Virus record (IMG/VR): IMGVR_UViG_3300017782_000058
Source: a virus
Reading direction: 5' to 3' (one strand)
Length of the DNA: 40,263 bases
Part shown: positions 124 to 40,263 of the stretch, one piece after another
Position numbering within the stretch: position 1 is the stretch's first letter
Layout of the letters: each line of letters begins with the position of its first letter
Translations under genes and position numbers: made by a program
Notes under the pieces: model-generated
Seen by the model: only the letters and a program-made list of their open reading frames with translations
Told to the model about the DNA's origin: nothing
Database searches by the model: none

Positions 124-3100
124 CAGTCTGCATATTGCCTGATTTACGCAGTTCATCACCAATGCTCATTCGCTTTTGATTTGCTTTAGGCTCACCCAAT
201 GTGTCGGTAACTACCTTTGCATTGGCCTCAACTGTCATTGGTGCAATCTGTGCCATAGCTACACGATTAGCAGGCTTCATGCTTGACTTTTGAATTGCGA
301 CAGCAACCTCGTCAATGTTTGACATTTTGATTTTCATCTTAATGATTTTTTCAAATGCCGCTTTGTCTTCTTTAGTCATTCCCTTAATCAAAGATTTCAT
401 GGCCTGACGTTTTACTTTTGCTTGCTTACTGTAGTCAGTGATTAGCGTCCCGGTCATGCGGCCCCAGGTACGCATTAACCACCTGTCCATAGTTAGCTGC
501 TCAAAGTGACCGTATAGGTTTGCAAAGAAACCATTACCAATCTTTGGCCCCAGGATAGCTGCGCCATAAACCATTGTGGTTTTGTTTTCACCAGATACCT
601 TTTTCCCAGTGAATGCCTCTACCTCTTTGACAGAATGCATGGTGGTCATGAAACCTTCAAATGCTTCAAAACCATACTGGTCAATCATTGTGTTATAGAA
701 ATCTAGACCGCCATTAATTGCGATAGTTGCCGTGCCATCACCTATGTCAGTAGGCATACGGCCATCAGCTTTAAACTTAGCGTATGCTTTTTCTGCTAGC
801 TCAAAATTTTTGTTTACCTTTAATCCATTTGATGTGACAGCCAGAGCCCAGGTAAATGCAAACTTAGCTTCGGGATCGGTGGCCACCTCTGGATGTATAA
901 GAGAAACCAAACGTAGCGCCTTAGTAATCTTTTCATCGTACCAGCCAACAGCATTTGGATTTGTTTGAATAGCAAACAGCGCATCTGACAGCACCGCATC
1001 AACAAGATATTTTTCTGTTGCTACAGAGAAATCAGATAAATCAACACCAGCTGCTTTTGCTGCTGTATTAACTCGATCCTGGATTGCCACCTTTAGATCA
1101 CGGTTTGTTGCAAATTGCTGCGACCCAGCAAATTCAAAACTGTTTTCTAGTTTGCTAACATCTAGGACGCTATCAGGTACGGGCTTGCCAGGGCGTTGCT
1201 CTCTTCCTCTTTGATAGAACACGCCTTCATCAACTCTAGGCGATACTCGAGGCAGATCTGCCAGGCCAGCTTCAGCGTTAATAGCAGTCACTTCGTTATC
1301 AGATAGAACCCTGATCACTTTCATGCTGCCCGAAATCAACCAGTCACCGGTCATGTTTGGATTTGTTTTGTATCTATAATGACCATCATTTGGGATCTGG
1401 TCTGTGATGTGTGCAGTTCGAGGAATGATCTCCCCGTTCTTGTTTCTGGTTGCACGTTCATTAGCTGTAGTCTGCCAGTCAACGTCAGCTGGAAGCTCTA
1501 CTAATGCCCACACCTGGTTGTCTGGTCTGTAATCTGGCTTTGTTTTGTCACGGCTTGTTTTGCCACCAATATGGCTTGCCATTGGCAAATCACCAGAATG
1601 CCAGCCTGGTCTAAACGCCAGCTCTCCAATTTTAGATTTAACTTTTCCTGACGCTACTTGCGGCCCAACTTCTGCCTCAATCCATTCATTAGTTTTGACC
1701 GGTGTGTTTGCATTCACAAACAAGGGGAACAATTCACCTGGCCTGTTTGGATCGATACGAAATAATTTATATGCCTGGACAGTATCTCGAGGCTCTAGCT
1801 TTCCTTGTTGGAATAGCGTCTTACCTGTTGTTTCATCAATACCTGACTGCTGCGCTTGTTCAATAGCCACCGCATCTGTATTTGCTTGCTGCAATATGTT
1901 TGCAGTTTCATTTGACCATGTGCCGCTATTAAACTGTGATTTGATTGCTTTGTTATCAAAGATTACAATCTCATTAGAATTGTCTCGACCACCTGGGTTA
2001 TTAGGCATAATAACGCCATCGTAACCTTCTGCAACAAGCCTGTCTCTAAAACCATCAGCTGCCTTGCGGCCACCTACTCTGATCTCTTGTTTCTCTTCCA
2101 GGGTTGCTATGTATGGATTTTCCAACCGGGCAAACATCGGCATGATGTTAGCGCCAACACCATCATCAGGTATTCTGCCAGTTCTTTTCTTTTGTGCTTT
2201 TTGTTCAGCATAAATTTTTGCAAGGGTGGGATCGTCTGTTGCATATACCCCAGTGCCTAGCCATCCAGTATCGTTTCTGTTTGGATGTTCAAAATCAAAT
2301 GCCTCAATACTGTCTGCAGTCCCATGATAAATAACTTTTGGCGAACCATCTTCATTTACTAATTTTGACTGACCAAAAAATTCTATAAACTCCGGGGTGT
2401 CAAATCTTGCATTGCCATTGTTATCGAACAGCTGTTGAGCTGCCTGGGCTTCTGGTTGTGCCGGCGCTCTAGCAGCTTGCTGCTGATTAACAATCTTATA
2501 CATATATTCGCTGTAAAAATCGGCAGGCAATATGTTCAGTTCAGAGGATTGCGTTACAACAAAATCACGCACAAAGTCTGCATAATTAGACGCGACATTA
2601 TTTGTGTATGCGCCGGTAGCTTTAATTTGATCCAGAATACTTTTACGTACTTGTGCTGCGCTTTCTTTAAATCCTTCTATTTCTGCATTCTTTTCTTCGA
2701 CAATACGCAACGCCTCTTCTGTCATAGCCTGGCGGTCTTTAACAAACTGCGCCGCCTCTGTTGCGCTCATGCTGTCTTCAGTAACTCGCATATGTGGCTG
2801 CAATGCAGTACCTAGATCTGTGCCAGCAATTTTTGCTGCGTACTCGCCTGTTTGAATTTTTACATCACCCTGGCCACCGGTTGCGTTTATCTCTTTCAGC
2901 TCTTCGGCTACTTGTGGTGAAACTGCCTCGAGCTGTTCCATTGTCACGCCATTAGATTTTAGCTGCTGATTTAAAATTTCAGCATCAATGTAAATGTCAG
3001 TAACATCCTTGCCGTTTGCAGTGTTTTGTATAAACGCCTGGAAAGCAGTCGGGTTTCTTTTCTTTGTCTTGCTATCGTTTGACAGTGTTGACAATTGCTC

Positions 3101-7408: not shown

Positions 7409-7467
7409 TAGGTCAACACCTCTTCTAAATTTTTAATTATTCTGACAGTACAGACAATCTACCCAGT

Positions 7468-7478
7468 TACGGGCACAC
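7468..7478 (-). promoter_or_regulatory. Variant copy (GTGTGCCCGTA) of the conserved strand-specific motif, in the nozzle / internal-virion intergenic region
   Basis: The minus strand reads TAG-TGTGCCCGTAACTGGG directly after the nozzle stop codon. It shares the 9-mer GTGCCCGTA with the copies at 13.4, 16.5 and 35.1 kb. Confidence 0.4.
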
Positions 7479-9940
7479 TATCCACCTATAGAAACTTCAA
7501 GCGTCACACCTATTACAGTAAGCGGAAGAGGATCTGTTTGCCTAATAAATATTTGTCCATTGTCTGCCCATGTCGGTGTGAGCATTATCTTAACGTCTTG
7601 TGTTTTAAGGTTAGGCGGCGTTCCATAGGGCTCTGTAGTACGCTGTTTAGCTTCTACCAGGTTCTGATCATTTGGCCCGGCAAAGATACCAGAGCTCTCT
7701 AAAACACGCAGCCATGCATGGTTTAAGTTCTTTACACGGCCCTGTCCAAACGCCTCTGTCTGTAGAGCTAAAGGCAACGTCTGTACATCACTGTTATATT
7801 CCAGGCCAACATGAACGACACTTGATGCCCGGTCTAATGTTATAGATCCGCCTGTTACCACTCTTTGCGGATGCACCGCACCGTTCTCGAGAATGCTAAC
7901 TGTTTTACCTTCCAGCCAATTCAAACCAGAAATAGTGTTTCTTGCCACCTCAAAGCCTGTTGTGGCGGTGTTCTGTAAGTTTGCTGGTATATCTCTATCT
8001 ATCTGCACATTGGCCTGTGTGGCGCTTACAGTGCTGATAATGGTGCATCTATAATATTGATCACCATCAACCAGGATAATCGCATCGCCAATATCTGATA
8101 AACTTGGTGGTGCATTAAATAAATTATAATTTGTTGTAGCTGTTAGCGTGTCACCTTTTGAATAACTAGCGCCATTCACCGTTACGTTTCGGGCAGTGTT
8201 TGTATTGATGCCGTTATAAGTGGCCCCTGCATCGACAAAGAAACTATCACGCTGGGTTTTAAATAATCTGGTTCCCATTCGTTCAATATATCTTTTTTCA
8301 ACGCCGCCTATTGTTCTTTTAATTACACAATAAACAACATCATCATCGCCCTCAGAGACTGTCGCAACGCTTTCAAACTTGCCATCTGTGTCATGCCAGT
8401 GCCATGCGCCTACAGTCTGTTCTGGGACGTATGTAAGGCCCAGCAATCTGCCTTGTGTATTGACCATCCAAACAATTGGTGTTGGTGCTTTAGCCAAGGC
8501 CATATCTATTATTCTGTAGTTATCGAATAGATGTGATGCACGCAGTGACAGATCTCCGGTGATAAAACCATTGGCCTGCCAGTTGTATCCCAGCTCTCTT
8601 ATATGACCACCACGGGATGCGGCATAAACCATACTATTATTAACGATCACTGGTTGAGCGTTTGATGCACCTACGTAAGACTGTGGTTTAACAGATATTG
8701 ATGTTGGTGTGATTGCATCACTGTTAACTGATTGCACGCGCCATTCTGCAGATCCTGTCATTAACAATAACTGGGTCAGCGGCACGATGTGTCTAATTGT
8801 ATTTGCTTCACGGGCAGCAACTCTAAACTCAATACGATCATCATCACGTATTGGTAAGCCGTATGACATATTGCTTTCAGTACCTGATTTAGTCATCCAA
8901 ATACTTTGTGGAGCATTATTAGTGCCGGCAAAAACTCTACGCTGCTCAAAATAGGATACAGCGCCCGGATAGTTGCCTGTCCCAACAAAATCATTTTCAT
9001 AGATTGGTGGTGTTCTAGAAAAGTCTGGGGATATATTAACGTCTTCGATGCTGTTTCCTGTTGTCTCACCAATGAAACCAAATATGCCGCCGACATCTTT
9101 ATAAACTCGATATCTAACTGCATTGGTTACTGAGTTCCATGAAATAGTATTTTTAGCACCCGACACAAAAATGTTATTTGTTCTTGATGCAGTATTTGAT
9201 TTAGCGCTTTCGTCAACCAGGTTAGCTGCAATAGCTGTTACGCAATACCGGTGCGTTTCATATGTGTCACTGTTTACGCTTTCTGATGATGGTATATATC
9301 GCGCTACACTGACGCCACCTGGCCTGCCAATAGGGCTGCCGAAATCAATATTGGTTACTTGCCACTGAGAAGCGCCAAGCCTTCTTAATTCTTTTGGAGC
9401 ATGATTAGGGTGCACCAGTGTCATCACATCAGCTGACTGCACGTAATGCACATCAAACAGCTCTGCTTCTAGATACGGCGATGGTATCTCGTATGTGTAA
9501 TCTGTAGGTAATGCATACCAGTAAGATGCATTTGGTGGTGTGTTGTTTGTATTGTCTGCAGTGCAGTAATAATTTACGCCACCTACTTTTGCTATGTCAC
9601 CTACATCGTAGGCTGTACTGCCACTCCAGGCAGCGCCATCTGCATATTGTAATGTTGACCCTTGTGTGTGAAACCTCATGTACTGATCACCAAGCTCGAT
9701 GACCATTGTTTGTGTGGTGTTAAATGTAAACGATAACAACCTTACAGACTTTGTGCTGTCTTTAACCTCATTAACATATGCAAAGCCTGGACGGTTTTCT
9801 GCCGGGCCTTGTGGCTTGGCTATAAAGTTACGCATCCTTGCCGCGCCCTGTTGATACTTGGCATCATCAATACGTCCGAACATTTCTGGCGAGATCTCAC
9901 CGCCTGAGAATGCCCTGTTAAATGTACGGGTATTTGGCAT
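7478..9940 (-). CDS. Tail tubular protein B / nozzle protein (T7 gp12-like)
   Basis: An 820-aa ORF immediately downstream of the gp11-like adaptor. Its N-terminus, FSGGEISPEMFGRIDDAKYQQGAARMRNFIAKPQGPAENRPGF, is typical of podovirus nozzle proteins as I recall them. Confidence 0.65.
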   Translation of the reverse strand: MPNTRTFNRAFSGGEISPEMFGRIDDAKYQQGAARMRNFIAKPQGPAENRPGFAYVNEVKDSTKSVRLLSFTFNTTQTMVIELGDQYMRFHTQGSTLQYADGAAWSGSTAYDVGDIAKVGGVNYYCTADNTNNTPPNASYWYALPTDYTYEIPSPYLEAELFDVHYVQSADVMTLVHPNHAPKELRRLGASQWQVTNIDFGSPIGRPGGVSVARYIPSSESVNSDTYETHRYCVTAIAANLVDESAKSNTASRTNNIFVSGAKNTISWNSVTNAVRYRVYKDVGGIFGFIGETTGNSIEDVNISPDFSRTPPIYENDFVGTGNYPGAVSYFEQRRVFAGTNNAPQSIWMTKSGTESNMSYGLPIRDDDRIEFRVAAREANTIRHIVPLTQLLLMTGSAEWRVQSVNSDAITPTSISVKPQSYVGASNAQPVIVNNSMVYAASRGGHIRELGYNWQANGFITGDLSLRASHLFDNYRIIDMALAKAPTPIVWMVNTQGRLLGLTYVPEQTVGAWHWHDTDGKFESVATVSEGDDDVVYCVIKRTIGGVEKRYIERMGTRLFKTQRDSFFVDAGATYNGINTNTARNVTVNGASYSKGDTLTATTNYNLFNAPPSLSDIGDAIILVDGDQYYRCTIISTVSATQANVQIDRDIPANLQNTATTGFEVARNTISGLNWLEGKTVSILENGAVHPQRVVTGGSITLDRASSVVHVGLEYNSDVQTLPLALQTEAFGQGRVKNLNHAWLRVLESSGIFAGPNDQNLVEAKQRTTEPYGTPPNLKTQDVKIMLTPTWADNGQIFIRQTDPLPLTVIGVTLEVSIGG

Positions 9941-13112: not shown

Positions 13113-13416
13113 TTTTTTGCTCCTTTATCATTGTTGGATACAGCTCTGGGCAGAGAGTGTGGACTAAGGTTAGGATCTGTAAGCCAAAGTTTCTGTTACC
13201 TTCGCTAAATGACATTGCCATCGCGTTGGTGTTAAACGATAACCTAAACACCCCTGCTTGTTCCAGAAGACGCCATATTACACGCCGCCCCCTCTTACTG
13301 CTCATGAGCCATTTAATATCCGCCTCTTCGTTCTCACGATCAATTTTGGAAGTGACTTTTTTACTGTCTCTTTCTTTTTCTTGACCTTTAAGATCTAGAG
13401 GATCGTAATTGCTCAT
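13072..13416 (-). CDS. Bbp19-like head-assembly-associated protein
   Basis: A 114-aa ORF. The segment GRRVIWRLLEQAGVFRLSFNTNAMAMSFSEGNRNFGLQILTLV resembles the Bbp19 family as I recall it. Confidence 0.5.
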   Translation of the reverse strand: MSNYDPLDLKGQEKERDSKKVTSKIDRENEEADIKWLMSSKRGRRVIWRLLEQAGVFRLSFNTNAMAMSFSEGNRNFGLQILTLVHTLCPELYPTMIKEQKNVRDADDGSQPTK

Positions 13417-13444
13417 GTTCTAATATATCCAGTTATTGATTTGA

Positions 13445-13458
13445 TACGGGCACGCCTC
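13445..13458 (-). promoter_or_regulatory. Conserved strand-specific motif, exact copy (GAGGCGTGCCCGTA)
   Basis: The minus strand reads TGA-GGCGTGCCCGTATCAAAT in the 40-nt gap upstream of the Bbp19-like gene. The 12-mer is identical to those at 16532..16543 and 35082..35093. Confidence 0.5.
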
Positions 13459-16506: not shown

Positions 16507-17128
16507 CTAATTTAACTTCATCGTCATCAGTTACGGGCACGCCTGACATAGGAAACAGATTTGTTACTGCATCGAATATTATGTGCACCCTGTTGTCGTT
16601 ACCTTTATTGTCAGCGGTGTGTTCTTTCTTATGGTCAAACCACCACACATCCCCGACATTAAATTCCTGTCTCTGATCTCCACAGGTCTGGCTGCATCCT
16701 TTGTTGGACTGCAGTACCAAATGAAACCTGGAGTAATAATCTGCATACATTCCCTGATCATCGTGTGCGTCTACATGGCCACCTGGTTCCAGGTTAACCA
16801 CTAGCACCCTGCCTAGTTCTATCACCTCTAGCCAATCTAATACTGGCTTTAACAATGGCACTAGCTCATCTGCCAGGTAATCCATGCACGGGTAATCGTA
16901 TGCCCCTAGGTCAAACATCACATAGTAATGGCTCATCTTTAATGGGCCTCTTACAAATATGCATTTAGTATCTTTGTGTGCAGAGTTGCTGGCCTTCTGC
17001 CGTGCCTCTATCTCATCCCATAGCTCTGGCTTATCGCTCAGTAGCTTATTGAATGGCCCAACGTCTAACCCTGTCGTAATGCGAATAAAGTTATCATCGG
17101 GCTGTTTAGATCGACTTGTATGGATCAT
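16475..17128 (-). CDS. Aspartyl/asparaginyl beta-hydroxylase-family (cupin, 2OG-Fe(II)) oxygenase
   Basis: A 217-aa ORF. GGHVDAHDD...YSRFHLVLQS...GDVWWFDHKKEHTADNKGNDNRVHIIFD matches the H-x-D...H facial triad and the RxHxPL and FDxxxxHxxxN blocks of this family. Confidence 0.7.
   Translation of the reverse strand: MIHTSRSKQPDDNFIRITTGLDVGPFNKLLSDKPELWDEIEARQKASNSAHKDTKCIFVRGPLKMSHYYVMFDLGAYDYPCMDYLADELVPLLKPVLDWLEVIELGRVLVVNLEPGGHVDAHDDQGMYADYYSRFHLVLQSNKGCSQTCGDQRQEFNVGDVWWFDHKKEHTADNKGNDNRVHIIFDAVTNLFPMSGVPVTDDDEVKLDESGVSYDRH
16532..16545 (-). promoter_or_regulatory. Conserved strand-specific motif, exact copy (CAGGCGTGCCCGTA)
   Basis: The minus strand reads CAGGCGTGCCCGTAACTGAT, 25 nt upstream of the GNAT start codon. 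It lies inside the 3' end of the hydroxylase ORF. Confidence 0.5.
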
Positions 17129-18425: not shown

Positions 18426-18882
18426 CAGGCACGCCTGTACTGACTACCAGGTTTATGCCGCCCTCATGGTTGAGCCCTACCTTGTCACCATACTTTTTTG
18501 GGTTCCATTTAGATAAGAGTTTTAACCTGGCTTCGATCCTGTTCTTACTCCAGGCAACATGAGCGCTATCCATTCTAGGATTATCACCGCCTGTTTGCAT
18601 TGGCATAGCATCGATGATCTCCAGGCATTCTTCTGCAATAGCATCAGCCCCCATGTCTCGCGCGTGCGCGATGCGTGCCAGAAACTCTGGATCTTTATCC
18701 AGCCAATGGTAAATAGTACGCCAGGCCGGCTTACCTTTTAACCGACAGAATGCACGCAAAGTTTTACCGTCAGAGATCCAGTCCAATAGTTCATCGACTA
18801 TTTTCTGATCTGGTTTCTCAGCTGGTCTACCCTTCTTTGCGGATGGTTTTCCAGTTTTCTGGTGTTTGTGCTCTTCTTTCAT
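18418..18882 (-). CDS. terS: Terminase small subunit (P22 gp3-like HTH type)
   Basis: A 154-aa ORF. ELLDWISDGKTLRAFCRLKGKPAWRTIYHWLDKDPEFLARIAHARDMGADAIAEECLEIID is the typical small-terminase N-terminal DNA-binding pattern. Its stop overlaps the TerL start. Confidence 0.8.
   Translation of the reverse strand: MKEEHKHQKTGKPSAKKGRPAEKPDQKIVDELLDWISDGKTLRAFCRLKGKPAWRTIYHWLDKDPEFLARIAHARDMGADAIAEECLEIIDAMPMQTGGDNPRMDSAHVAWSKNRIEARLKLLSKWNPKKYGDKVGLNHEGGINLVVSTGVPDD
18426..18437 (-). promoter_or_regulatory. Partial copy (CAGGCGTGCCTG) of the conserved motif, at the TerS/TerL junction
   Basis: The 10-mer CAGGCGTGCC is shared with the copies at 16.5, 22.5 and 35.1 kb. It ends at the TerL ATG. Confidence 0.3.
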
Positions 18883-19090
18883 ATCTGCAAATCTTTGCCA
18901 CTGTTCCTCTGTCTATATTAAACATAGTTGATAATGTACCATAACCGATAGAATGATCTTCATGTAGATCGCGCATAGCGTCAACTGTCGCATCTGGTAT
19001 ACGAGCGTTTTGATGAGACATACCTACCCGGTATCCCTTCTCATTCACAGCTATCACTATTCTAGTTACCTTTGCCATCGCTCCTATCAT
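18827..19090 (-). CDS. Helix-turn-helix DNA-binding protein
   Basis: An 87-aa ORF. GMSHQNARIPDATVDAMRDLHEDHSIGYGTLSTMFNIDRGTVAKICRYERR is a resolvase-type HTH pattern common upstream of phage terminases. The true start may be the ATG at 19078. Confidence 0.6.
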   Translation of the reverse strand: MIGAMAKVTRIVIAVNEKGYRVGMSHQNARIPDATVDAMRDLHEDHSIGYGTLSTMFNIDRGTVAKICRYERRAQTPENWKTIRKEG

Positions 19091-19558: not shown

Positions 19559-19563
19559 CCATG

Positions 19564-22218: not shown

Positions 22219-22582
22219 AAGTTTTCTCCTTTAGGATGCGTATACGAACAAAACCACCGAGCATTTCGGTGTCCATAGTTGCGATGACAGTTGTAAACCG
22301 CTTGTCATCTATGCGGAGCGCGTCAGCTAAACCATCTATGCCGGCCTTCATTCGCGCAGTCAGGTTATCTCGATCATAGTTCCTTTTGTCCGGGGGAACG
22401 AATGTCATTTCGAGAACCATATCGTCAGGCAGATCCACTGCCTCTATTTTTTTCAGCTGCTCTTTTGCAACAGTGTGGCACGCCTGCCTGTAAGATTTTT
22501 TTGCCCGTGCCAATTTACCCCAATGCAGTCTAGCGTTTGGGCTCAGTTGGCTGGGCGGCCAGCCCAGGACAAGCTCAATCAT
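22208..22582 (-). CDS. RusA-like Holliday junction resolvase
   Basis: A 124-aa ORF. WPPSQLSPNARLHW... and YDRDNLTARMKAGIDGLADA fit the RusA size and acidic catalytic block. Confidence 0.6.
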   Translation of the reverse strand: MIELVLGWPPSQLSPNARLHWGKLARAKKSYRQACHTVAKEQLKKIEAVDLPDDMVLEMTFVPPDKRNYDRDNLTARMKAGIDGLADALRIDDKRFTTVIATMDTEMLGGFVRIRILKEKTYGA

Positions 22583-23236: not shown

Positions 23237-23241
23237 CCGCA

Positions 23242-23267: not shown

Positions 23268-23313
23268 ACATAAATCAACAGTGATGATACATTCATCAAC
23301 ACGGGAGAACAAT

Positions 23314-25732: not shown

Positions 25733-25738
25733 AAAAGT

Positions 25739-25776
25739 GGCCGGCCTTAGACCAGGGAGAAAAACTAAGGCCGGCC
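25739..25776. terminator. Bidirectional rho-independent terminator between convergent units
   Basis: A perfect 12-bp stem, GGCCGGCCTTAG / CTAAGGCCGGCC, with a 14-nt loop. On the minus strand TTTTTT follows the stem after 2 nt. On the plus strand TTTTT lies 9 nt downstream of the stem. Confidence 0.75.
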
Positions 25777-25782
25777 CCCATG

Positions 25783-25836
25783 CTACTTTTTAGGTGGCTT
25801 GGGTTTCTTCGGTGGTTTAGGTTTACCGTATGCCAT
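25783..25836 (-). CDS. Candidate 17-aa Lys/Pro-rich micropeptide (MAYGKPKPPKKPKPPKK)
   Basis: AAGGAG lies 7 nt upstream of the ATG at 25836. The ORF starts 19 nt after the endolysin stop, and its TAG lies 6 nt before the terminator stem. Confidence 0.35.
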   Translation of the reverse strand: MAYGKPKPPKKPKPPKK

Positions 25837-25855
25837 TTTCTTTCTCCTTTTCTAG

Positions 25856-26311: not shown

Positions 26312-26703
26312 TTTGTTAATCCTTTTACTTTTTCTACGGTACGCAAACCACCAAGCCCCAACATACCTAACAAGACTGTCATCAGGCTATCCATGTCAAA
26401 CGCCGGCAGTTCTGGTGGTTCCATGCCAGCATAAGCAAAGGCAAACATTGTGATGGGAGCTATTACAAAATGCCATAGCATGGCAAAGCTCAAGCCCCAG
26501 CCCAGGAAGGGCCGCCAACCCGCCACAAAAATACTTCTGTGTTGGGCCTCCATCTTATTTATTTCTAGCTGCCCCATGTTTGCTTCATGCATTTGTTTTT
26601 CTGCCATTGTGGCAATGTCATGAGCCAGTTTATTTTTTTGGTCTTTGTCCTCAATAAATTTATCGAGTAATCCGGTGACCGGGCCGATCAATGCTTGTAT
26701 CAT
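26308..26703 (-). CDS. Holin (resembles the 3-TM gene-transfer-agent-type holin family)
   Basis: A 131-aa ORF. HRSIFVAGWRPFLGWGLSFAMLWHFVIAPI plus two further hydrophobic segments. It lies immediately upstream of the endolysin gene. Confidence 0.65.
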   Translation of the reverse strand: MIQALIGPVTGLLDKFIEDKDQKNKLAHDIATMAEKQMHEANMGQLEINKMEAQHRSIFVAGWRPFLGWGLSFAMLWHFVIAPITMFAFAYAGMEPPELPAFDMDSLMTVLLGMLGLGGLRTVEKVKGLTK

Positions 26704-26939
26704 TGTTGCACCTCTTCCATTAGTTTAGTTATGTGAAACTTACCGTCAGGACTTTTCTCTAACTGGACAGTAATTTCTTTACATTGCCAGCGCTGATCAA
26801 AATCAGATCCGCCTACAATGTTTCTTTTTATCTTACGCTTGGTTGCCAAGCACTCTGATAAACTTTCATAGGGTGTATATTCAATTGGCACATCTTCACT
26901 GGAAGACCACAACAACAACACAAATACCATCTCAATCAT
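26700..26939 (-). CDS. Small secreted/membrane protein (lysis-cassette associated)
   Basis: A 79-aa ORF with the hydrophobic N-terminus MIEMVFVLLLWSSS and no lipobox Cys. It has 4-nt overlaps with both neighbouring genes. Confidence 0.45.
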   Translation of the reverse strand: MIEMVFVLLLWSSSEDVPIEYTPYESLSECLATKRKIKRNIVGGSDFDQRWQCKEITVQLEKSPDGKFHITKLMEEVQQ

Positions 26940-27340
26940 TTTGTATATCCATTAACTCTAAGTTTCTCGATGTTCTCCTCAATAGTAGTAATACGTTTTT
27001 CATAAAATTCTAACGTAAGTTTTTGTTGCTGATCATATGGAGCCCGGCCAGTTTCTATTTCGGTTTGTAATTTTTCTAATTCTTTTGCCAGGTGTTCAAT
27101 CAACATAAACTGTTCACTATCTGCAGGCAGTGAACCCATCTCGCCTCTAGGCCATTTGATCCTAAACTCTGTATTCTTTTCGAGATCAGCTTGCATCATG
27201 GTCTGGTTTGTTTGAAGAGTATTTAATTTTTCAACCACGCCAAAGTATGCCCATGTAGCCACACTTGCTGCAGCGATCATGCTAAGAATATTTCTTAGTG
27301 GTAATGCAACCTCAGTATTTTCATTTATCTTTGGCATCAC
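26936..27340 (-). CDS. Type-II membrane protein with a coiled coil (i-spanin-like architecture)
   Basis: A 134-aa ORF with an N-terminal TM segment (ILSMIAAASVATWAYFGVV) followed by a long heptad-rich helical region. Confidence 0.4.
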   Translation of the reverse strand: MMPKINENTEVALPLRNILSMIAAASVATWAYFGVVEKLNTLQTNQTMMQADLEKNTEFRIKWPRGEMGSLPADSEQFMLIEHLAKELEKLQTEIETGRAPYDQQQKLTLEFYEKRITTIEENIEKLRVNGYTK

Positions 27341-27555
27341 TTCCCATGATCTTTTTCACTCGACAGCCAGACTGCCAGCGATCCTGTCATGCTGCCAGAC
27401 ACCACAGAAATCATGGCGCTTTGTTGAGTTGTTAAATTCTCGAGGCTTATTCCCCATTCGATTACTCTTATATAAACTAACGTCATTACTACCATCATAA
27501 ACCTGGGTAGGATACGTAGCTCTAACATTCTGCGTGCGATATATTCTACTGTCAT
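27337..27555 (-). CDS. Small membrane protein
   Basis: A 72-aa ORF with two hydrophobic segments (FMMVVMTLVYIRVI; MISVVSGSMTGSLAVWL). Confidence 0.4.
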   Translation of the reverse strand: MTVEYIARRMLELRILPRFMMVVMTLVYIRVIEWGISLENLTTQQSAMISVVSGSMTGSLAVWLSSEKDHGK

Positions 27556-28007
27556 ATTGCTTTACCCTTTACTAAAAATGCTACGAATATAATCAAAGCA
27601 ATGCCAGCTCCAACAATTAGAAATGCAGTGAACCCTAGTTCTATCCATTCTTCTATTTTGGCTTGCCTTTGAAATTTTATTCTTTGTTCTTCTTTTGCAG
27701 CTTCGTTTCTTTCACGCGCAGCTTTTGCCTGGAAGGAGATCCAATCACCCCAGAGCCCCGGCCTGCCTACGTATATCATTAATTGTTTAAGTTCTTCTTC
27801 CTGTTCACGCAGCTGCTCGAGCGCCAGGAATTCTTCCAAATCTGATTTGTCTGATTTGCCGCTGCTGTTAACAGCCTTTTGTAGTTTAGCTTTACTATCG
27901 AAATATGTGACAATGTTTTTACCGGCGGATGCAATGTCCCCGGTATTCTGCAGTGCTGATTTTATAACTTGGAAAGCCGCATTACACGCAGCGATTTCTG
28001 CCAACAT
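27552..28007 (-). CDS. Tail-anchored membrane protein with a coiled coil
   Basis: A 151-aa ORF with a C-terminal TM segment (LGFTAFLIVGAGIALIIFVAFLV) and a charged helical middle region. Confidence 0.4.
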   Translation of the reverse strand: MLAEIAACNAAFQVIKSALQNTGDIASAGKNIVTYFDSKAKLQKAVNSSGKSDKSDLEEFLALEQLREQEEELKQLMIYVGRPGLWGDWISFQAKAARERNEAAKEEQRIKFQRQAKIEEWIELGFTAFLIVGAGIALIIFVAFLVKGKAI

Positions 28008-28022
28008 ATTTGCCTCATTGTT

Positions 28023-28265
28023 TTATTTTTGCCTTTCAATCAACCTGTCAATTTTAAGATCGATGTTATCCAATCTACTTAGAACACGGTTGATATCTTC
28101 TTGCGCCTCATTTTTTGTTACATATTCTTTCGCAATCTCTTCTCTTGTTTTGTTAAGAAGAATAGTAATGCGATCCAATTCATCTGTTTTGCTCTTTATA
28201 AAATATGCGCTTACCCCAATAGACAGGGTAAGCAACACATTCCAAATCGTTTGTACTTCTTCCAT
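28023..28265 (-). CDS. Small membrane protein with a coiled coil
   Basis: An 80-aa ORF with an N-terminal TM segment (WNVLLTLSIGVSAYFI) followed by a helical region. Its start overlaps the fibre stop in a TAATG overlap. Confidence 0.4.
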   Translation of the reverse strand: MEEVQTIWNVLLTLSIGVSAYFIKSKTDELDRITILLNKTREEIAKEYVTKNEAQEDINRVLSRLDNIDLKIDRLIERQK

Positions 28266-31200
28266 TAAGCCTGGCTCTCAGACCATGAGATACGTGAGTT
28301 CACGATCAAAGGATTAGAGCTGGTCACTGTTCCAGGGTCTTCTGTAAGCCTTGCAACAACAGTCAAAATGTCTGGGCCATCAGGGAATGTATTGTTACCG
28401 CCCATGATTGAGTTACCTAGTGAAGCAACTTCACCCAAAGTTTGCTCTGTAAGTGCCTGGCTTCTAGCTGTTGAACCTGTACCGCCAGACGCTCTGAACC
28501 TATACAAGTTCACACCACCTTCGATGCTGTCTCCTGTACCGTGATAAATCAGCTGGGACAGTGATGGGTTTTCAACAGCCTGCCAGCTGGCGTTATCAAT
28601 AGCGCCATTCAATCTTAGAGAAACCTCGATTGTGTGAGTTGTCAAAACACCTACTGAATTTAGTAGCAGCTGCATACGGTTAATGATCTCACGCTCACCT
28701 AGCTCACCAATTGTTCCGGTGTCTACTGATGGGGCCAATCTAATAGAAATTAGTGGCACATCATAAACAACCGGCGTTGCTGCGTTAGCTAATGTGACTG
28801 TGTACGTGCTGTTCGAGCCTGCTGTACCTGTTGGCTGCTTATCTATAACAATTAAGTTTCTTGTTTGTAGATCGCTGTAGTTCGTACCTTGCGCTGCAAA
28901 AATCTCAGGCAGATAAGTGGCAGACGGTGTGATGTTTCTGTCGTATGGATTACGTAATCTTGTATCACTCGACAGGTTAGCACCTGTAACAGTTTGCCCG
29001 GAAGTAAGCTGGTTGTAGTTAATGTTAGTGTTTGTTTCTAAGGCATAACCAATTCTACGCCATCTACCAAACACTACGCTGTAGTAATAATTCGTATAAT
29101 CAACCTTACCTGTTACAGCAATTGTTGCGCTACCAGACACGGCAACGTCATTAGACGCAGCTGTAAAGACGTATGCTTTATCGTCATCAAACGTACCGTC
29201 CATAATTACAGACGTACCCCAGTGTGCCAGGGCAGGCACGTATGTAGGCGTGCCAATATTCTGAATGTCATATCGGGCCGGCATATTACCGGATCTCATA
29301 TACGCTTCTGTTTCTAAGTTGTTGTGGATAAATGCGTGCACATATTGAACGTCACCATCCTGGTCTTTAAAACCAAATCTAATTTTACCAGCGCCGTACC
29401 ATGAATAATCTATGTAGGCCATCTGGATTTTGTTTAGATCTATGACATAGCCTGTCGGGCCTAGACCGTCAGCTGTATCAATATTCCAATTAGCTTGGTT
29501 TACTTTAATTGTTTCAGTGATTGTGCCAATGACGCCATCACTTGTTTTGCCCCGGTATGATGGGGTGATGTACATAATCGTATCACTGTCAATTTTAGCG
29601 ATCTGATATGTTTGACCTTTAAGAACAATGTAATCATTCACATTACACTGGCTAGAAAATTTAGTGTTGATACCAGATACAACGCCAGCGCCAAACGTAG
29701 TAGTCATTGACCCGGCTAGCTGTTTAATAGATTTACGTCTACAACATTTTAAATTTTGACCATCATACTCAAAGAACATACCGTTCTGATCGTCAAACAA
29801 TCCGCAACGTAGCTGGCTGTTTTGCCATGCGTTAACATGGTAATAACCATATCCCCCGGTACTAACAGCCTGTGGTGGAGTAGATGGCAAAGTAATGTGG
29901 AAACTGTAATCATCATAAATTGCAGTCACACTAAACGTGCCGTTAAAATAGTCTTGCCCCAGGAATAGATCGACACCATTAATTGTAATTTCTAGACCGG
30001 CAGAAAGACGGTGTGCAAATTTTGTATATACCCTAGCTTGGGCTCCACCAAGAGCATAATCGATACGCTCAATCTGAGTAGTGGGACTAAAGTTTACAGC
30101 AAATGAAACCTGGATACCCTTACCAGATTGGTATCGGAAATATTTACGTGTCTGACGTATCATTTGACTGTCGGGATTTGTAGACGGGATCAGCTCGACA
30201 CCACCATCATAAGGTCTGTGTAATGCAAAGCCATCTGCACGCAACACCAGTGATGTACCCACAGAGTAATTAATGTCTGACAAACTTTCTGTAGAGCTTT
30301 CATCAATCTGAATTTTAGTTGGTGACAATACAGATTTCACTCGGTGAACAATTGTATCACCAGTTGTAAGAACCTTTTTTAGAACGCCGCTACTAATTGT
30401 ACCGCTGAATGTAACGTGATTTGCCGCAGCTGCTGCGTCAGTTGCATTGGTGTACATTTTGACAGAGTTATTATCAACTACACCAACATAGTAGAAAAAC
30501 CCACTAACCAAACCTGTCGGTACTGATGATGCCTCAAAGATAACCAGGTCACCATTTGAGTAGCCATGATTAGTAGAGGTGTTAAGATCTGTCCCCCCGG
30601 AGAGAGATGCAATTACTTTTTGGTCAAAAGTTTCTGGCTTGTACAAAGATATATCATCACCAGTTTTAAAGAACGATGTAAAGTTTGTACCAGCTCCAGT
30701 AATAGTAGAGCTATCAATTGGCAGAGTTACAGTGCCTTGCCCTGCAATCTCACCAATAAGATTGTTTGTTTCTAAGTTAGCCTGGCCAACACCTTTTGAT
30801 GTTAGAGTAACTTGTGTCCCGTCTAATGCATCATCGTATGAGGCAGCTAGCTTGACCCAGTTTTGTGATACCCGAATAATGTAATAAACAGTGTTATCTG
30901 TTAGACCGCCTGTCGCGGTTGTTCCTTCTTGGTATGTAATGGCAAAACCAGTACGCAAGAAATGGTCAGGTATTCTGATGCTGTCTTGCTCAATCCAAAC
31001 ACTACTGTCTGGGTCAAATGGGATTGACCGTTTTGGTATTGTTGCTCCGGCCTGCATTTCAAATGTATTGTCATCAATCTTTCTGGTCATTTTGTAAACG
31101 CTGTCTGATGCTCCATCCACACTAGCTGTGAATTTTTGTGCACCAGCGCCTGCACCAGTTAGATCTACAATGTCTGTTTTTCTTACTCGGCCCGTGCCAG

Positions 31201-35030: not shown

Positions 35031-35081
35031 TGACTATACTCCTGGGATAATATCGATTAGAATATCCCTGTTTGGGTTTAA

Positions 35082-35096
35082 TACGGGCACGCCTGG
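35082..35096 (-). promoter_or_regulatory. Conserved strand-specific motif, exact copy (CCAGGCGTGCCCGTA)
   Basis: The minus strand reads TGA-TACCAGGCGTGCCCGTATTAAAC in the 68-nt gap between the giant ejection gene and the fibre gene. Confidence 0.5.
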
Positions 35097-35098
35097 TA

Positions 35099-38000
35099 TC
35101 ATCTACTAGCCGGACTTGCCTTGCCGGTAACCAACCCTCTGAGAAAATCAGCGTCACTAGTAGGATCAATTTTACCGCTTTCTACATCTACCGCATATCC
35201 AATTGGTCTACCCAATACTGTTAGCGGTATACCGGTTACCAATGACAATAATGTTAGAACATCCCTGACATTTTTTCCGGTCACATCTTTATCTTCATCA
35301 ATGATATTGATCGCTGTTTTAACAGTTCCTACTGTTGCAGCCTCGAGCAATGATATTGATGGGCTTGTGGTCATACGGTCATCGTATGGCAAATCATTAA
35401 ATGAATTTAAAGGCACGATAGCAATTGTGCCAAATGGCACTAACGCTGCAGCGCCTCTTAACTGTGAACCAAAGAACCATCCAGCCACCTCATCTAGATA
35501 ACCGTCATCATCTTCGTCATCAAAATCACCACCTACTGCCCGGACAATGGCATCGGCTACCAACATAGGCAATCCAAAACCTAACAAGTATGTCATAAAC
35601 AGCTGGCCTTTATTTCCTCGCCAACCAAGATCTCTAAATATTTTTGTGTATGCTGTAGCGTTTAAGTTAGCCAGCATATTAAAGTAACCGCCAAACTGTA
35701 ACATTGTTTTATAGAACGGCGAACCAACTTGGAATGCTGCAAGATCTTCTGCAGTCAAACTATCCTGGGTCATACGCACGTTAGCGTCAGCTCTTGCTAT
35801 AGCTTCTTTTTCAGCAGCCACATCTTTAGTTGATGCAGGCAGTTCTGCTAGCGTCTTGTTATATGTAGCAATCCACACAACGGTATCGACCTGGTTTTGA
35901 AATGCTTGCTGTAGAAAATAGCCGTGTCGTTGCGCCCACTTTTGGATCTTCGCATATTTACTTGGGTTGAGCAGAAGATCGTTTAATGTTTCTTGAATAT
36001 CAAAAATTTGATTACGCTGACGATCTGCCATAAACGGTGATAGCTCGGCTATCTCGGTTTGAGCTTTCATAGGCGCTTTCATATACTGAGCCAAACCAGA
36101 TCTTAAATATTTGCCTTCTACCTTTAGGGCGGCTGGAAAATATCCTGTGATTTGCTGCAGTGCGTTTGTGATATTGGCAAACATAATGCCAACACCAGTT
36201 CTGTTTCTGACTGCTCCCCAAAACTTGTCCATAGTTTGGTTTATGCCACGTTCAATTGTTGTCTGCCTGGCAGATCTATTAAGCCAAGGTATCAACATCT
36301 CTTCGATAGCGCCCGGATCAATAGCAGTTAGATTATCTGCAAATTGTCTATTACGCAGTATCTTCGTAACATCTTTAATAGCTGGCTGCAGATATGCAAA
36401 ACGCAAAACATCATCGATGTGCTTGGTCATTAACCTAACATCTAATGATAAAGGCTGATTGTATTCGACACGGCCTTTTGTAAATCCATTGCCAGTGCTT
36501 GGCAGTGCTTGTCTAAAATCACCCTCAAGCTCTTCTAGCTTTGCATTGCGTTGTGCATCACGCACCATAAATGGATCTGTTTTAGCCGGCACGTAACCGC
36601 CTCTGAACGTACCAAATCGGTTAGTGATAGGCACGGCCTCAACTTCATTAAAATAATAACCGTAGATTTCATTGTGTGCTTTTTGTGCCAGTGGCTTCAT
36701 TTCTTCTGTCATGTCCCAGACAGATTGTAGAAAATCAAAATCAGCTTTTGTCAAAACACCTTCATCAATCATACGATCAATAAATGTATCCCATTTAGCT
36801 GTATCCATTTCTTTGTTGTCATCCAATACGGCCCAGTTTCTACCGACAAGTAATTTACGCAGATTGCTTTCATTGCCCATGTGCAACATAGCGCCTAGTA
36901 ATTCTGCTTTGCCTAGGCCACCGTTCTCGTTCCCAAATGTATAACCAAACTCCCCGGCAATAATTTTACCTTTGCCCAGGTCTAGCTTGGCAATCATTTC
37001 TGCGTAACGCCTTGTGTAATTATTACGTGCCACACGATATAAATCTACCGCGCCTCTAATTGGACGCCATATATATTTGGTGAAAGCACCTACCCCGGCA
37101 GCCCCATCTAAACTATCAGCCCAATGCTCTACACGGCGCAGCTGGGCTTTTGTTGTATTGATTGATCGCATTATACGAGCTTTACGCCCTGGGGCTTCTG
37201 TGCTGCCCTCTGGCGTGTCTGGTATTCCTATCTCTTCTAGACGCAAGTTGAGCTCACCTATGACCCCTTCAAGCTCCATAGTCTGGCCATCGATAGTAAT
37301 TTGTTTATCACGCCGCGATTGATACCACAGTGACTGGATCATATCATTGAGTGTGTCGAATTCTTCACCGGTCAAATCTTTTATGTCCCGGCCACCCATT
37401 CTTGATGCGTCCATAATTAATGGTTCGACCTGGGCAAACATATCTGGATTATATGCTTTTAGCTTTTCAACGTAATCTAGTGGGCTATCAACTTTTGGCC
37501 CCATGTTATAAGCCGCCAAAATAGATCTGGCTGCATTTACTAGATCCATGTTTCTATTTTTTGCTAGCTTTTTATCTGCTTTGAAAACTTGCTTAAATAA
37601 TTTTTGTGCTTTGTCATACCGCTTGTGCACCTCGATTGCTTCACGCGCCAGCTGGTTTTGAATTAACTGTGCACGTTTTGCGCTAACAGCGCCGGCACTA
37701 TCACCTTTACGCATTGCCGCTTCTGCAGCCTTTACTGCTTTAGCTTCATTTCTTGCAAATTGTGATGGGCGTATTTCACGTAGTTTCTTTTTAGCCAGCA
37801 ATTCTTTTGCTACCTGTCTAGCTGCGGCTACCTGATAACGTACTGGCTGCATAGATTTAGATAGAAAACGCAGCTCTACCGATATGAACCTGGCTCGAGC
37901 TTCATTATGCAATGCCTCTTGTACTTGTAACTCTTGCTGTCTCGGGTCAGTCAGATCACTAAACTCATTTAACATACGGGCATCAGTTCGCTCAGTGATA

Positions 38001-40263
38001 ACCTCTTGCATAGGTCTAGCATTAAGCAACGCATTAATCATTGATTGCCCGGTTTCATAACCAAACATTTCTGCCACGATTGATACCGGCATACCGTCTT
38101 TTGCCACCATGCCGTATTTGCCAAACCCTAACTTTTTAATTTGGTCATTTGTTAGCTCTGGCATCAAAGCCTTTATGTCATCGATGGATATTTTGTGGCC
38201 ATCTTTTGCTGCCACTCTTTCGCCTTGTTCGTTGACAAATTCTCCACGCTTCAGAAATCCAATAATCTGATATATTTTTTCTGATTGTAATTTTTGAGCT
38301 TCTTCTTCTGAAACTTTTTTACGTTGAGTTCTGGCTGTTGCCTGTAGTTCTTTTATTACCCGGCTCCTAGCATTGGACAACCATTTGACCTGTCTCATGC
38401 TAGCTTTGGTCATGTCAGTGACAGCGCTATCATGCGCGTCTTTCATTATTTGTGTGTACTCGGCCCAGGTGGCGTCATCCATTCCGCTTTCTTGCTGGGT
38501 CTGGAACATTGCTTTCATGCCGTAAACTTGCTCTGCCTGATTAATCTGGTCTTCACTGGCAAGCATACGATCCATAACACCCCTAACTTCATCAGTTAGT
38601 ATTGGCAGATCTACGCCATTTTCTTGTCTGTAGATTACGTTTAGCTCGTCCCTGATTGACCGATATATACGCCGGAGGAAAGTGCTAAACCGATCAAACA
38701 GGGACTGCATTTTGACATTTGGAGCTTTGCCCTCGAACAAATAAATCTCAAAGTTATATGCAAAACTTTCATGATATTTTCTTTGCTCATTAAGTGACAG
38801 CTTATTCCAAGTGTCTAGATTTTCGACACCAAAGAAATCCAAAAGAGTTTGGAAATCATTTACCATCTTAGGTGTCGCATTTTCTTTACCGGCTAAATCG
38901 GCCATGACAGTCAACATAAAGTGAGCTGTCTCATGTAAGAACGTAGAATAGTCTGCGTCCTTATTTAATATTGTTGTAAGTGTAGTCGGATCAAAACCAC
39001 CTCTAGCACCACCAGGTATTTTTTCCTGAGATAAAATTTCGCTTTGCTGCATACCGTCACCAGTGATTGTTTCCATGTCACCGGCCACGCCTTCTTCATA
39101 TGTAAAGGCAGGCATCAGCCCAGTCTTTTGTTCTGCAAAAATAGTTTCTTCTAGAGAGGCTGTTCTGTTTTGTGGGCCATATGGGCCAAAGTTAAGCCAA
39201 CTGTTTTGGCCTCTTGTTTCTGTTGTGATAGCTGCACGGGCAGATCCAGTGAATAATCTAATGTGCGCTTGCCAGGCATTCTCTTCACCGTCATATCTAA
39301 ATCCAGAACCTTCTATGCCGTGCCCAAACGCATCGTGTACGGCTCTAAACAGATCATTGGCCAGAACCCTCTTAGGCTCACCGTCAAGGCTGCCAGAAGG
39401 CCATGTAAGGCCGGTATCGGCCAACATAGGATTTTCAGTAGAGCTTACAGTTTCTTCTGATCCAAACCCTGTTTCTGATGCATACACGGCCAAGGTTTGA
39501 TTGGCACGCAGCTCACGCATAGAGTTCCAAGGGTTGCCACCATATGGATCTGTAGTGTCATCAAAGAAATAGAATTGATATCCAGCATCTATTAGCGCCT
39601 GGTATTGGGCTGTAGTCTGCTTAATTAAATTTTCATATGCTTCAAGCACAACCGGATCATTCGGCGTATGCTCCATCTGTTCATATGCATTGGCTATTCT
39701 CGTAGCCAGGTCTGTGTTTACTCGGACGTATTCTCGTTGTCTTCTAAGATCGATCCCATTGTCTCGAGCGTATCGTTCAGCAACGGTGACAAGTCTGATG
39801 TCTGGGCCGGTTGCTCCATCGATGGTTGGCGCACCTTGTAACGGCGCAAGGCTTCCGCCTGCATACCCATCTCTTCTGTCTCGCTGGTTAAGAATTCTGT
39901 CTCCATCTCCAGGTTGTGTTCTTCCTGGCTGGATAGAGGTCTGTTGTTTGAGTTCATTATCTACATCCTTTATCGTTGCGTTAACATCAGCATCAGACAC
40001 ACCACGGCTCCGCGCTAGTGCAGCAGCGGCGTTAGCGTAGTCTGGCGCTTCCTGGTCTTCGTATCCCGTGTTGCCTTCTTGCTCCGAAACTTTCGCAGCA
40101 TCATACAGACGCTTTTCGGGATACCAAAGCAACGCCTGTAGGTCTGCCATTGTAAGCGATTTTTGCTCCTGTTGCAATATGTTCAACGCTTGTGCAAAAA
40201 CCTTTCTAATCTGCGCCCTTTCTGGTGGGCCTTGCGGTGCTTCCTTTTGACCATCTAAATATA
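35099..40263 (-). CDS. C-terminal part of the same giant polyvalent internal-virion/ejection protein. The track ORF 35099..40186 is a truncated view of it.
   Basis: The frame is open from the stop at 35099..35101 up to the window end. The track start at 40186 is a TTG that encodes Leu inside the continuous frame. The segment contains FLHETAHFML (an HExxH motif), LFRAVHDAFGHG, and C-terminal hydrophobic helices (GQLFMTYLLGFGLPMLVADAIV; AAALVPFGTIAIVPL). It occupies the T7 gp16 position, after the internal virion proteins. Confidence 0.9.
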   Translation of the reverse strand, partial: YLDGQKEAPQGPPERAQIRKVFAQALNILQQEQKSLTMADLQALLWYPEKRLYDAAKVSEQEGNTGYEDQEAPDYANAAAALARSRGVSDADVNATIKDVDNELKQQTSIQPGRTQPGDGDRILNQRDRRDGYAGGSLAPLQGAPTIDGATGPDIRLVTVAERYARDNGIDLRRQREYVRVNTDLATRIANAYEQMEHTPNDPVVLEAYENLIKQTTAQYQALIDAGYQFYFFDDTTDPYGGNPWNSMRELRANQTLAVYASETGFGSEETVSSTENPMLADTGLTWPSGSLDGEPKRVLANDLFRAVHDAFGHGIEGSGFRYDGEENAWQAHIRLFTGSARAAITTETRGQNSWLNFGPYGPQNRTASLEETIFAEQKTGLMPAFTYEEGVAGDMETITGDGMQQSEILSQEKIPGGARGGFDPTTLTTILNKDADYSTFLHETAHFMLTVMADLAGKENATPKMVNDFQTLLDFFGVENLDTWNKLSLNEQRKYHESFAYNFEIYLFEGKAPNVKMQSLFDRFSTFLRRIYRSIRDELNVIYRQENGVDLPILTDEVRGVMDRMLASEDQINQAEQVYGMKAMFQTQQESGMDDATWAEYTQIMKDAHDSAVTDMTKASMRQVKWLSNARSRVIKELQATARTQRKKVSEEEAQKLQSEKIYQIIGFLKRGEFVNEQGERVAAKDGHKISIDDIKALMPELTNDQIKKLGFGKYGMVAKDGMPVSIVAEMFGYETGQSMINALLNARPMQEVITERTDARMLNEFSDLTDPRQQELQVQEALHNEARARFISVELRFLSKSMQPVRYQVAAARQVAKELLAKKKLREIRPSQFARNEAKAVKAAEAAMRKGDSAGAVSAKRAQLIQNQLAREAIEVHKRYDKAQKLFKQVFKADKKLAKNRNMDLVNAARSILAAYNMGPKVDSPLDYVEKLKAYNPDMFAQVEPLIMDASRMGGRDIKDLTGEEFDTLNDMIQSLWYQSRRDKQITIDGQTMELEGVIGELNLRLEEIGIPDTPEGSTEAPGRKARIMRSINTTKAQLRRVEHWADSLDGAAGVGAFTKYIWRPIRGAVDLYRVARNNYTRRYAEMIAKLDLGKGKIIAGEFGYTFGNENGGLGKAELLGAMLHMGNESNLRKLLVGRNWAVLDDNKEMDTAKWDTFIDRMIDEGVLTKADFDFLQSVWDMTEEMKPLAQKAHNEIYGYYFNEVEAVPITNRFGTFRGGYVPAKTDPFMVRDAQRNAKLEELEGDFRQALPSTGNGFTKGRVEYNQPLSLDVRLMTKHIDDVLRFAYLQPAIKDVTKILRNRQFADNLTAIDPGAIEEMLIPWLNRSARQTTIERGINQTMDKFWGAVRNRTGVGIMFANITNALQQITGYFPAALKVEGKYLRSGLAQYMKAPMKAQTEIAELSPFMADRQRNQIFDIQETLNDLLLNPSKYAKIQKWAQRHGYFLQQAFQNQVDTVVWIATYNKTLAELPASTKDVAAEKEAIARADANVRMTQDSLTAEDLAAFQVGSPFYKTMLQFGGYFNMLANLNATAYTKIFRDLGWRGNKGQLFMTYLLGFGLPMLVADAIVRAVGGDFDDEDDDGYLDEVAGWFFGSQLRGAAALVPFGTIAIVPLNSFNDLPYDDRMTTSPSISLLEAATVGTVKTAINIIDEDKDVTGKNVRDVLTLLSLVTGIPLTVLGRPIGYAVDVESGKIDPTSDADFLRGLVTGKASPASR
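40141..40263. repeat. Terminal direct repeat, copy 2 (duplicate of 1..123)
   Basis: Identical to 1..123 by direct comparison. The unique genome length is therefore 40,140 bp. Confidence 0.95.

Follow-up and report, generated by a model that had tools for sequence, protein, structure and literature searches.

A conserved two-part element marks four probable late promoters in a BPP-1-like podophage

A 12-base word repeated on the gene strand of a podophage genome forms the upstream half of a two-part element, in which the word is followed, exactly 17 nt further on, by a hexamer of the form TAnnnT. The element is found at four places in the window (the whole stretch of DNA that was analysed, 40,263 nucleotides), and these four sites are probably promoters. 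This reading is based on the invariant T (-12), A (-11) and T (-7) of the hexamer, the rigid 17-bp spacer whose sequence is free, the position ahead of genes and the strict strandedness. It also appears likely from the sequence that the 12-mer is the activator box of four late promoters, read by a phage factor and combined with a -10 for the host sigma70. The initial annotation had offered late promoters read with a phage factor, RNA processing sites and strand-specific nick sites as possible roles; the fixed N17, the TAnnnT hexamer, the synteny and the distances to start codons favour the first of these, and the -10 is left unexplained by the other two. The predicted sites are as follows.

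16509..16543, minus strand: late promoter A (predicted), with box GGCGTGCCCGTA at 16543..16532, -10 hexamer TAAATT at 16514..16509 and a predicted start at about 16503-16501; targets are the GNAT gene, a 107-aa gene and the portal gene.

13414..13456, minus strand: late promoter B (predicted), with box GGCGTGCCCGTA at 13456..13445 and -10 hexamer TATATT at 13427..13422; targets are the Bbp19-like gene (ATG 13416, the 6th nt past the -10), the protease and the capsid.

7445..7479, minus strand: late promoter C (predicted), with box AGTGTGCCCGTA at 7479..7468, -10 hexamer TACTGT at 7450..7445 and a predicted start at about 7438; targets are the internal-virion genes and the 3146-aa polyvalent protein.

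35059..35093, minus strand: late promoter D (predicted), with box GGCGTGCCCGTA at 35093..35082, -10 hexamer TATTCT at 35064..35059 and a predicted start at about 35053-35051; targets are the fibre, the 1877-aa virion protein and the lysis genes.

Positions 1-123 and 40141-40263 of the window are an identical stretch of 123 bases, which indicates a circularly assembled genome of 40,140 bp. Nearly every gene lies on the minus strand. Scans against Pfam, PHROGs and NCBIfam covered 38 ORFs or ORF fragments, both giant proteins included. Pfam and PHROGs assigned the packaging genes terS and terL, the head and neck genes (T7-type portal, Bbp19-like protein, GP7-type major capsid protein and tail/nozzle protein), an Asp/Asn-hydroxylase-like protein, a GNAT, an internal virion protein, a polyvalent protein of 3146 aa that crosses the window ends, and the fibre, 1877-aa virion protein, holin and endolysin. 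The same databases place a YqaJ/RecT block on the plus strand and an early block on the minus strand, the latter encoding Cro-like, RusA-like and DUF1376 proteins together with a DnaC-like loader. The polyvalent protein is encoded by an ORF that linear ORF calling splits in two:

35099-40263 continuing into 1-4399, minus strand: ORF of 3146 aa.

This ORF contains ART-PolyVal and LPD22 domains and matches phrog_9880; its product is a giant polyvalent virion protein that is probably ejected. The portal protein shares 64% identity with that of BPP-1 (Bordetella), 71.5% with that of Limnohabitans phage DC33 and 74-75% with those of two Manatee Spring phages, and its more distant kin include Caulobacter phage Jess A and Salmonella phage epsilon15. 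Judged by portal similarity, the window is a BPP-1-like podophage. The GenBank record of DC33 (PQ492659) is filed under Inoviridae though this is a podovirus-like dsDNA phage; the taxonomy line looks wrong, and nearly all genes in the record are called 'hypothetical'.

The exact word GGCGTGCCCGTA is absent from all 100 dinucleotide-preserving shuffles of the window (0 copies in each), which bears out the earlier claim that three exact copies exceed chance. The longest exact word common to the three copies is the 13-mer AGGCGTGCCCGTA, one of very few 12- or 13-mers present three times in the window. When two mismatches are allowed, the fourth same-strand copy, AGTGTGCCCGTA, is real and lies between the nozzle and internal-virion genes, as had been proposed; other matches at this level are no more numerous than expected by chance. 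Its first bases deviate because they overlap the TAG stop of the 820-aa tail/nozzle gene. All four copies have the same orientation, on the gene strand, in agreement with the initial annotation. Three of them start 0-5 nt past the stop codon of the preceding gene (at site D, 5 nt past the TGA of the 3146-aa ORF), and the distance from the box to the annotated ATG of the next gene is 25-59 nt across the four sites. A protein-coding origin of the box, which had been discounted from the start, is rejected here as well: three sites are non-coding, and the fourth lies inside the 3' tail of the 217-aa hydroxylase-like ORF, a tail that relatives do not keep. A host uptake sequence, a Chi site and a CRP half-site were considered for the strand bias and for the TGTGA found in the marine variant of the box; these were rejected because TGTGA is absent from the window variant and the element keeps a constant distance to a -10.

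Partial copies sharing CAGGCGTGCC had been reported at 18437..18428, the end of terS, and at 22486..22477, inside the RusA-like ORF. They exist, but they are excluded from the set because they have no CCGTA and no -10 and because GGTGTGAC, the marine counterpart of this half-box, almost never occurs apart from full boxes in the marine relatives. The weaker relatives proposed at 37986..37975 and 1189..1178 do not survive: they are at chance level, with no CCGTA and no -10. The 10-mer CAGGCGTGCC itself is present four times on one strand, two of them outside the promoters, an excess over chance that the promoter set does not explain. Similar peptides are encoded across it, ..TGVPDD followed by the stop at the C-terminus of TerS and ..SGVPVTDDDE.. 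in the tail of the hydroxylase ORF.

The second half of the element is as regular as the first in its placement, since TAnnnT lies exactly 17 nt past the final A of ...CCGTA at 4/4 copies. With one mismatch allowed and both strands searched, the pattern GTGNCCGTA-N17-TANNNT finds the four window sites only, and 0/100 shuffles reached four matches. Numbered as a promoter, each window site has its box at -40 to -29 and its hexamer at -12 to -7, with the T (-12), A (-11) and T (-7) of a sigma70-type -10. A TTGACA-like -35 is missing, the in-register hexamer being CCCGTA or ACCGTA with a match at 1/6 positions, and the TG extension of the -10 is absent from the sites. As in class II-type activation, the box covers the -35 region at all four sites, keeps a fixed phase to the -10 and lies upstream of late genes. 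A sigma70 consensus scan had been run over positions 18000-29000, a range that contains none of the four sites. The initial annotation saw no resemblance to sigma70 elements, which is correct for the 12-mer alone and incorrect for the whole site, given the TAnnnT 17 nt downstream of every copy. No terminators lie upstream of the boxes; read-through expression of these genes is thus also possible, and the four promoters may only boost expression.

Conservation of the motif at syntenic junctions, which had been suggested as a check, was found at four junctions, distant relatives included. A portal-based search of IMG/VR gave 80 loci. The four closest keep GTGCCCGTA, and the other loci carry [AG]GTGTGACCGTAA, which occurs 150 times on the gene strand and 0 times on the other strand. 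The marine copies have three syntenic locations: some 840 nt ahead of the portal gene, immediately ahead of the Bbp19 homologue, and across the TAG stop of the nozzle gene. For the junction between the giant-ORF stop and the fibre start, a second search for relatives was anchored on the C-terminus of the giant protein; the box at this junction reads GTGACCGTA, GTAACCGTA or GTACCCGTA, most often with TAACCT as the -10. Site by site, the counterpart of A is present in 79 relative loci, with TACTGT or TACTCT as the -10, and also in DC33 and BPP-1; that of C reads ggtggaTAGTGTGACCGTAA-N17-TATATT in marine relatives and occurs in DC33 too; that of D is present in 26 of the 27 relatives whose sequence reaches the junction, as well as in DC33 and upstream of bbp9 in BPP-1. 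A set of 122 distinct marine sequences, drawn from three site classes, shows 100% invariance in the box and at the T, A and T of the hexamer while the spacer varies freely; the same set has a strong preference for A 6 nt past the hexamer. Three marine relatives have GTGACCATA in place of GTGACCGTA at the Bbp19-homologue site only, with the -10 and the spacing kept, a naturally occurring point variant of a CCGT core that does not otherwise vary. When 198 related loci are pooled (1.96 Mb, loci partly overlapping), the core GT[GA][AC]CCGT[AG] is found 344 times on the gene strand versus 34 times on the other, and TAnnnT follows exactly 17 nt past it in 307/344 versus 3/34 of these. Spacings of 16 or 13 nt amount to six cases in all among these loci.

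The same architecture extends to more distant genomes with other versions of the box. DC33 (54% GC) has (A)AGGTACCCGTA-N17-TAnnnT at 4/4 syntenic junctions, and one Manatee Spring phage has four ACCCGTA-N17-TAnnnT sites. In BPP-1 (65% GC), GGGTGCCCGTG-N17-TAnnnT precedes bbp24 (GNAT), bbp19 and bbp9 (fibre), and a weaker copy precedes terS. GGTGCCCGT[AG]-N17-TAnnnT is the form seen in prophages from genome bins of Thiobacillus and Gallionella; one site that fits the pattern precedes the HTH gene of a Dechloromonas locus, and the box variant of a Polynucleobacter prophage is GTGCGCGTA. These prophage relatives with an HTH gene, in which boxes are seen, come from genomes or bins labelled as Polynucleobacter, Dechloromonas, Thiobacillus or Gallionella; except for a few other metagenome bins, the prophage relatives lie in genomes or bins labelled as Betaproteobacteria, which suggests that the group has betaproteobacterial hosts. 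A search without a preset motif, for 7-mers that stand 17 nt ahead of TAnnnT three times or more in a genome, yielded the same box from the window, from DC33, from the Manatee phage and from BPP-1, and yielded no 7-mer from epsilon15 or Jess A. Jess A, in which the hexamer spacing varies, has a repeated intergenic word, GGTGCGCATGAT, with three copies, one of them upstream of terS. The box differs by lineage (GTGCCCGTA, GTGACCGTA, GTAACCGTA, GTACCCGTA, GTGCCCGTG) and is identical at all sites within one genome. At 6125-6187 of BPP-1, a strong terminator-like hairpin (CCCCTGGGGAAG...CTTCCCCAGGGG TTTTT) lies past the bbp9 box, with the -10 hexamer in its loop; from this layout, upstream transcripts would end and new ones begin at the bbp9 site.

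The position of start codons provides a further constraint. Of 84 distinct regions upstream of the Bbp19 homologue, 83 have its start codon 5-7 nt past the -10, at a distance of 5 nt (n=62), 6 nt (n=18) or 7 nt (n=3). This gap leaves no room for a ribosome-binding site and would imply a leaderless mRNA, and the A (or G) of the start codon sits at the expected transcription start, which gives independent support for initiation there. The full arrangement, box-N17-TAnnnT-(5-7 nt)-start, spans genomes of 44% to 65% GC among those with measured GC, and bbp24 of BPP-1 has the same geometry, at 7 nt. In the window, the Bbp19-protease-capsid mRNA is predicted to be leaderless, with its start on the A of ATG 13416. 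Sites other than B are followed by a Shine-Dalgarno-like sequence at normal distance. At site A the annotated GNAT start, ATG 16506, is only 2 nt past the predicted -10; because a Shine-Dalgarno-like GTGGGG precedes ATG 16488, likewise in DC33, the true start is probably ATG 16488.

A box that is uniform within each genome and variable by lineage fits a single trans-acting reader that is borne by the phage. The candidate is a small HTH protein:

18827..19090, minus strand: HTH protein of 87 aa, directly upstream of terS; homologue of BPP-1 Bbp27.

Members of the Bbp27 family have 83-87 aa, and their gene is directly upstream of terS. When early regions were compared, the Bbp27-like protein was the sole non-structural protein common to the window, four marine relatives, DC33 and BPP-1; the gene is also present in the Manatee Spring phage and in Jess A, and epsilon15 has neither a Bbp27-like HTH gene nor the box. 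Bbp27 is annotated as 'endonuclease' in BPP-1, and other family members are 'hypothetical'. The family is strongly conserved (...VNExGYRIGxxHHNAxIxDxxVDxIRDLHED...TIAKICRYERRAQ...), and Pfam and NCBIfam give nothing above threshold. The AlphaFold model of the Bbp27-like protein is a three-helix helix-turn-helix of moderate confidence (pLDDT 65). When searched with Foldseek, the model gave weak hits (E >= 0.1) that are generic for small HTH folds, among them KorA, the DNA-binding domain of DeoR and several region-4 domains of ECF sigma factors on -35 DNA. Such matches to a predicted model are consistent with a binder of the -35 region, though not diagnostic of one.

Helix 3 of the regulator and the box of the Bbp19 site were tabulated in about 80 loci, with shared ancestry uncontrolled. 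The GTGCCCGT[AG] box always goes with a ...K[IV]CRYERR helix (R69), in eight helix variants; the GTACCCGTA box always goes with C[N/K/Q]YERR, never Arg (five variants, nine loci). The GTGCGCGTA box of the Polynucleobacter prophage goes with the helix GVCQYRRR, and Jess A combines helix DIIACRQR with the word GGTGCGCATGAT. The GTGACCGTA box, however, is found with both CRYERR and CKYQIR helices, and the association of GTACCCGTA with a non-Arg residue may be one ancestral event. The co-variation is thus partial and, given the two helices of GTGACCGTA and the uncontrolled shared ancestry, is taken as suggestive only. On balance, the phyletic pattern and the partial co-variation tip the odds slightly towards the Bbp27-like HTH protein as the reader of the box.

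The proposed mechanism would run as follows. The primary sigma of the host RNA polymerase would recognise TAnnnT as the -10, and a phage-encoded sequence-specific protein would sit at the -35 region and recruit or stabilise the polymerase, an arrangement that could be called class II or 'sigma-appropriation-like'. The reader would most likely be the HTH protein of about 85 aa from the end of the early operon, just upstream of terS, and it would activate the structural and lysis genes after the early phase of expression. Transcription from promoter B would begin at the A of the Bbp19-like ATG and yield the leaderless Bbp19-protease-capsid mRNA. More speculatively, and with the odds well against it, the Bbp27-family HTH protein could be a free-standing substitute for sigma region 4 that docks on the host polymerase at the -35. 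If true, this would be a minimal, one-protein sigma appropriation acting over the whole structural regulon of BPP-1-like phages, a regulon that would span a leaderless capsid-operon mRNA and the fibre/mtd tropism-switching cassette of BPP-1.

The nearest alternative keeps the promoters and changes the reader, which could be an alternative sigma or transcription factor of the host (Betaproteobacteria) or another phage protein. The promoter anatomy fits this reading too, and the link between the HTH protein and the box consists of a phyletic pattern and an imperfect helix correspondence at the sequence level. A common host factor is also conceivable as the prophage relatives are mostly in Betaproteobacteria-labelled genomes or bins. 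However, the box changes between close phages, and does so in concert across the sites of a genome, which a phage-borne reader explains better; epsilon15 lacks the box and the HTH gene together; the box is, to our knowledge, unlike the sigma32, sigma28, sigma54, sigmaE or CRP consensus; and no RNA polymerase or sigma factor gene, nor any match to the Sigma70_r2 and Sigma70_r4 domains, turned up when Pfam, PHROGs and NCBIfam were run on 38 ORFs or fragments, with the 3146-aa and 1877-aa proteins included. Another reader is thus considered improbable. A loading or pause site for a Q-like protein, acting on elongating polymerase in the manner of lambdoid antiterminators, would share the logic of box plus hexamer: Q-binding sites have a DNA box beside a -10-like hexamer, and the boxes discussed here lie within a long co-oriented gene array without upstream terminators. 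Such an explanation is nevertheless very unlikely, as there are four sites per genome rather than one and no genuine promoter just upstream of each. The 5-7 nt between hexamer and start codon at site B fit initiation at the ATG rather than a pause, and the BPP-1 terminator hairpin, which separates the box from the next gene and holds the hexamer in its loop, suits re-initiation.

Two further explanations dispense with promoters altogether. Strand-specific nick sites in virion DNA, of the T5, phiKMV and LUZ24 type, would suit a motif that, like this one, is strand-specific, present in few copies per genome and conserved within a lineage. Nicking leaves the TAnnnT at a fixed 17 nt and the fixed start-codon distance unexplained, however, and the motif always lies just ahead of gene starts; the ORFs scanned contain no candidate nicking enzyme, and we know of no published nick consensus that resembles the motif. 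The chance that nicking accounts for the motif is put very low. An RNA-level signal in the late mRNA (a processing site, a translational operator or a ribosome-recruiting element) would suit an intergenic element on the transcribed strand, and is rated just as low. The four window sites have RNA-fold z-scores of 0.29, -0.61, 1.08 and -3.73, with no common fold, and zero matches in Rfam. The motif had been described as having no hairpin potential, which is true of three sites; the fourth, site C (7425-7495, minus strand), can form a stable hairpin that contains the box (-21.4 kcal/mol, z = -3.7), with a pairing that is lost in relatives. Furthermore, the distance from box to start codon varies from 28 to 59 nt and that from box to TAnnnT is fixed, which points to recognition at the DNA level by polymerase, as the promoter reading would have it.

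Among known systems, the predicted promoters can be compared with the middle promoters of T4, which join a MotA box to a sigma70 -10 through AsiA-mediated sigma appropriation. The likeness of the proposed promoters lies in a good sigma70-type -10 combined with a phage-specific asymmetric box instead of the -35, used by host polymerase with a phage protein, and in several copies per genome that share one box. In contrast, the MotA box, consensus (a/t)(a/t)(a/t)TGCTTtA, is centred near -30, and the box described here occupies -40 to -29 and is unrelated in sequence. T4 uses MotA together with AsiA at middle promoters, whereas here a single HTH candidate of about 85 aa would act on late structural genes; no MotA or AsiA homologue was found by Pfam and PHROGs in the 38 ORFs or fragments. 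The lambda CII promoters (PRE, PI, PaQ) and class II promoters likewise have an activator site over the -35, a usable -10 and no -35, but CII is a tetramer that binds the direct repeat TTGC-N6-TTGC and serves lysogeny control, unlike the single asymmetric 12-mer and the late-gene activation proposed here. RinA, ArpU and LtrC of Gram-positive phages are comparable in that the gene of a small DNA-binding regulator lies right before the packaging and structural genes and its product acts on promoters ahead of them; they typically have one target promoter, upstream of terS, versus four inside the structural cluster, and Pfam, PHROGs and NCBIfam do not assign the Bbp27-like protein to these families. 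T7-type promoters are also short words repeated in intergenic gaps on the gene strand that differ between related phages. They depend, however, on a phage RNA polymerase and form a continuous 20-23-bp promoter through +1, in contrast to a two-part element with a free spacer in a genome where no polymerase gene was found by the scans. Promoters of ECF or phage sigma factors come with a sigma gene and a -10 other than TAnnnT, such as CGT; the present sites have the -10 of a primary sigma, and no sigma gene was found in the ORFs scanned.

The general kind of promoter, in which host polymerase uses a sigma70 -10 and a phage-specific element replaces the -35, is already known. What appears undescribed is this box in particular, together with its conservation in BPP-1-like phages, the leaderless geometry and a candidate reader from the Bbp27 family: in a literature search with the motif strings, the 15 papers listed out of 271 were all unrelated, papers on Limnohabitans phages and on the Caulobacter relatives do not discuss promoters, and the 2004 genome paper of BPP-1 might carry an earlier mention. 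The analysis gives a testable map of late transcription for widespread podophages, among them lineages abundant in marine and fresh water, betaproteobacterial prophages and the model phage BPP-1. Its predictions are four promoters with start sites, a leaderless capsid-operon mRNA and a named candidate regulator. The box and its lineage variants could be used to group uncultured phages by regulator specificity, and the boxes could be a source of portable, phage-inducible promoters. In BPP-1, one site lies ahead of the bbp9-mtd-avd-TR-brt tropism-switching region and may bear on expression of the diversity-generating cassette.

Another repeat was observed in the early block of the window. The heptamer TTGTTTC is present in about six tandem copies at 21187-21243, within the gene of the DUF1376 replication protein (20940-21590), and this array may represent the iterons of a replication origin.
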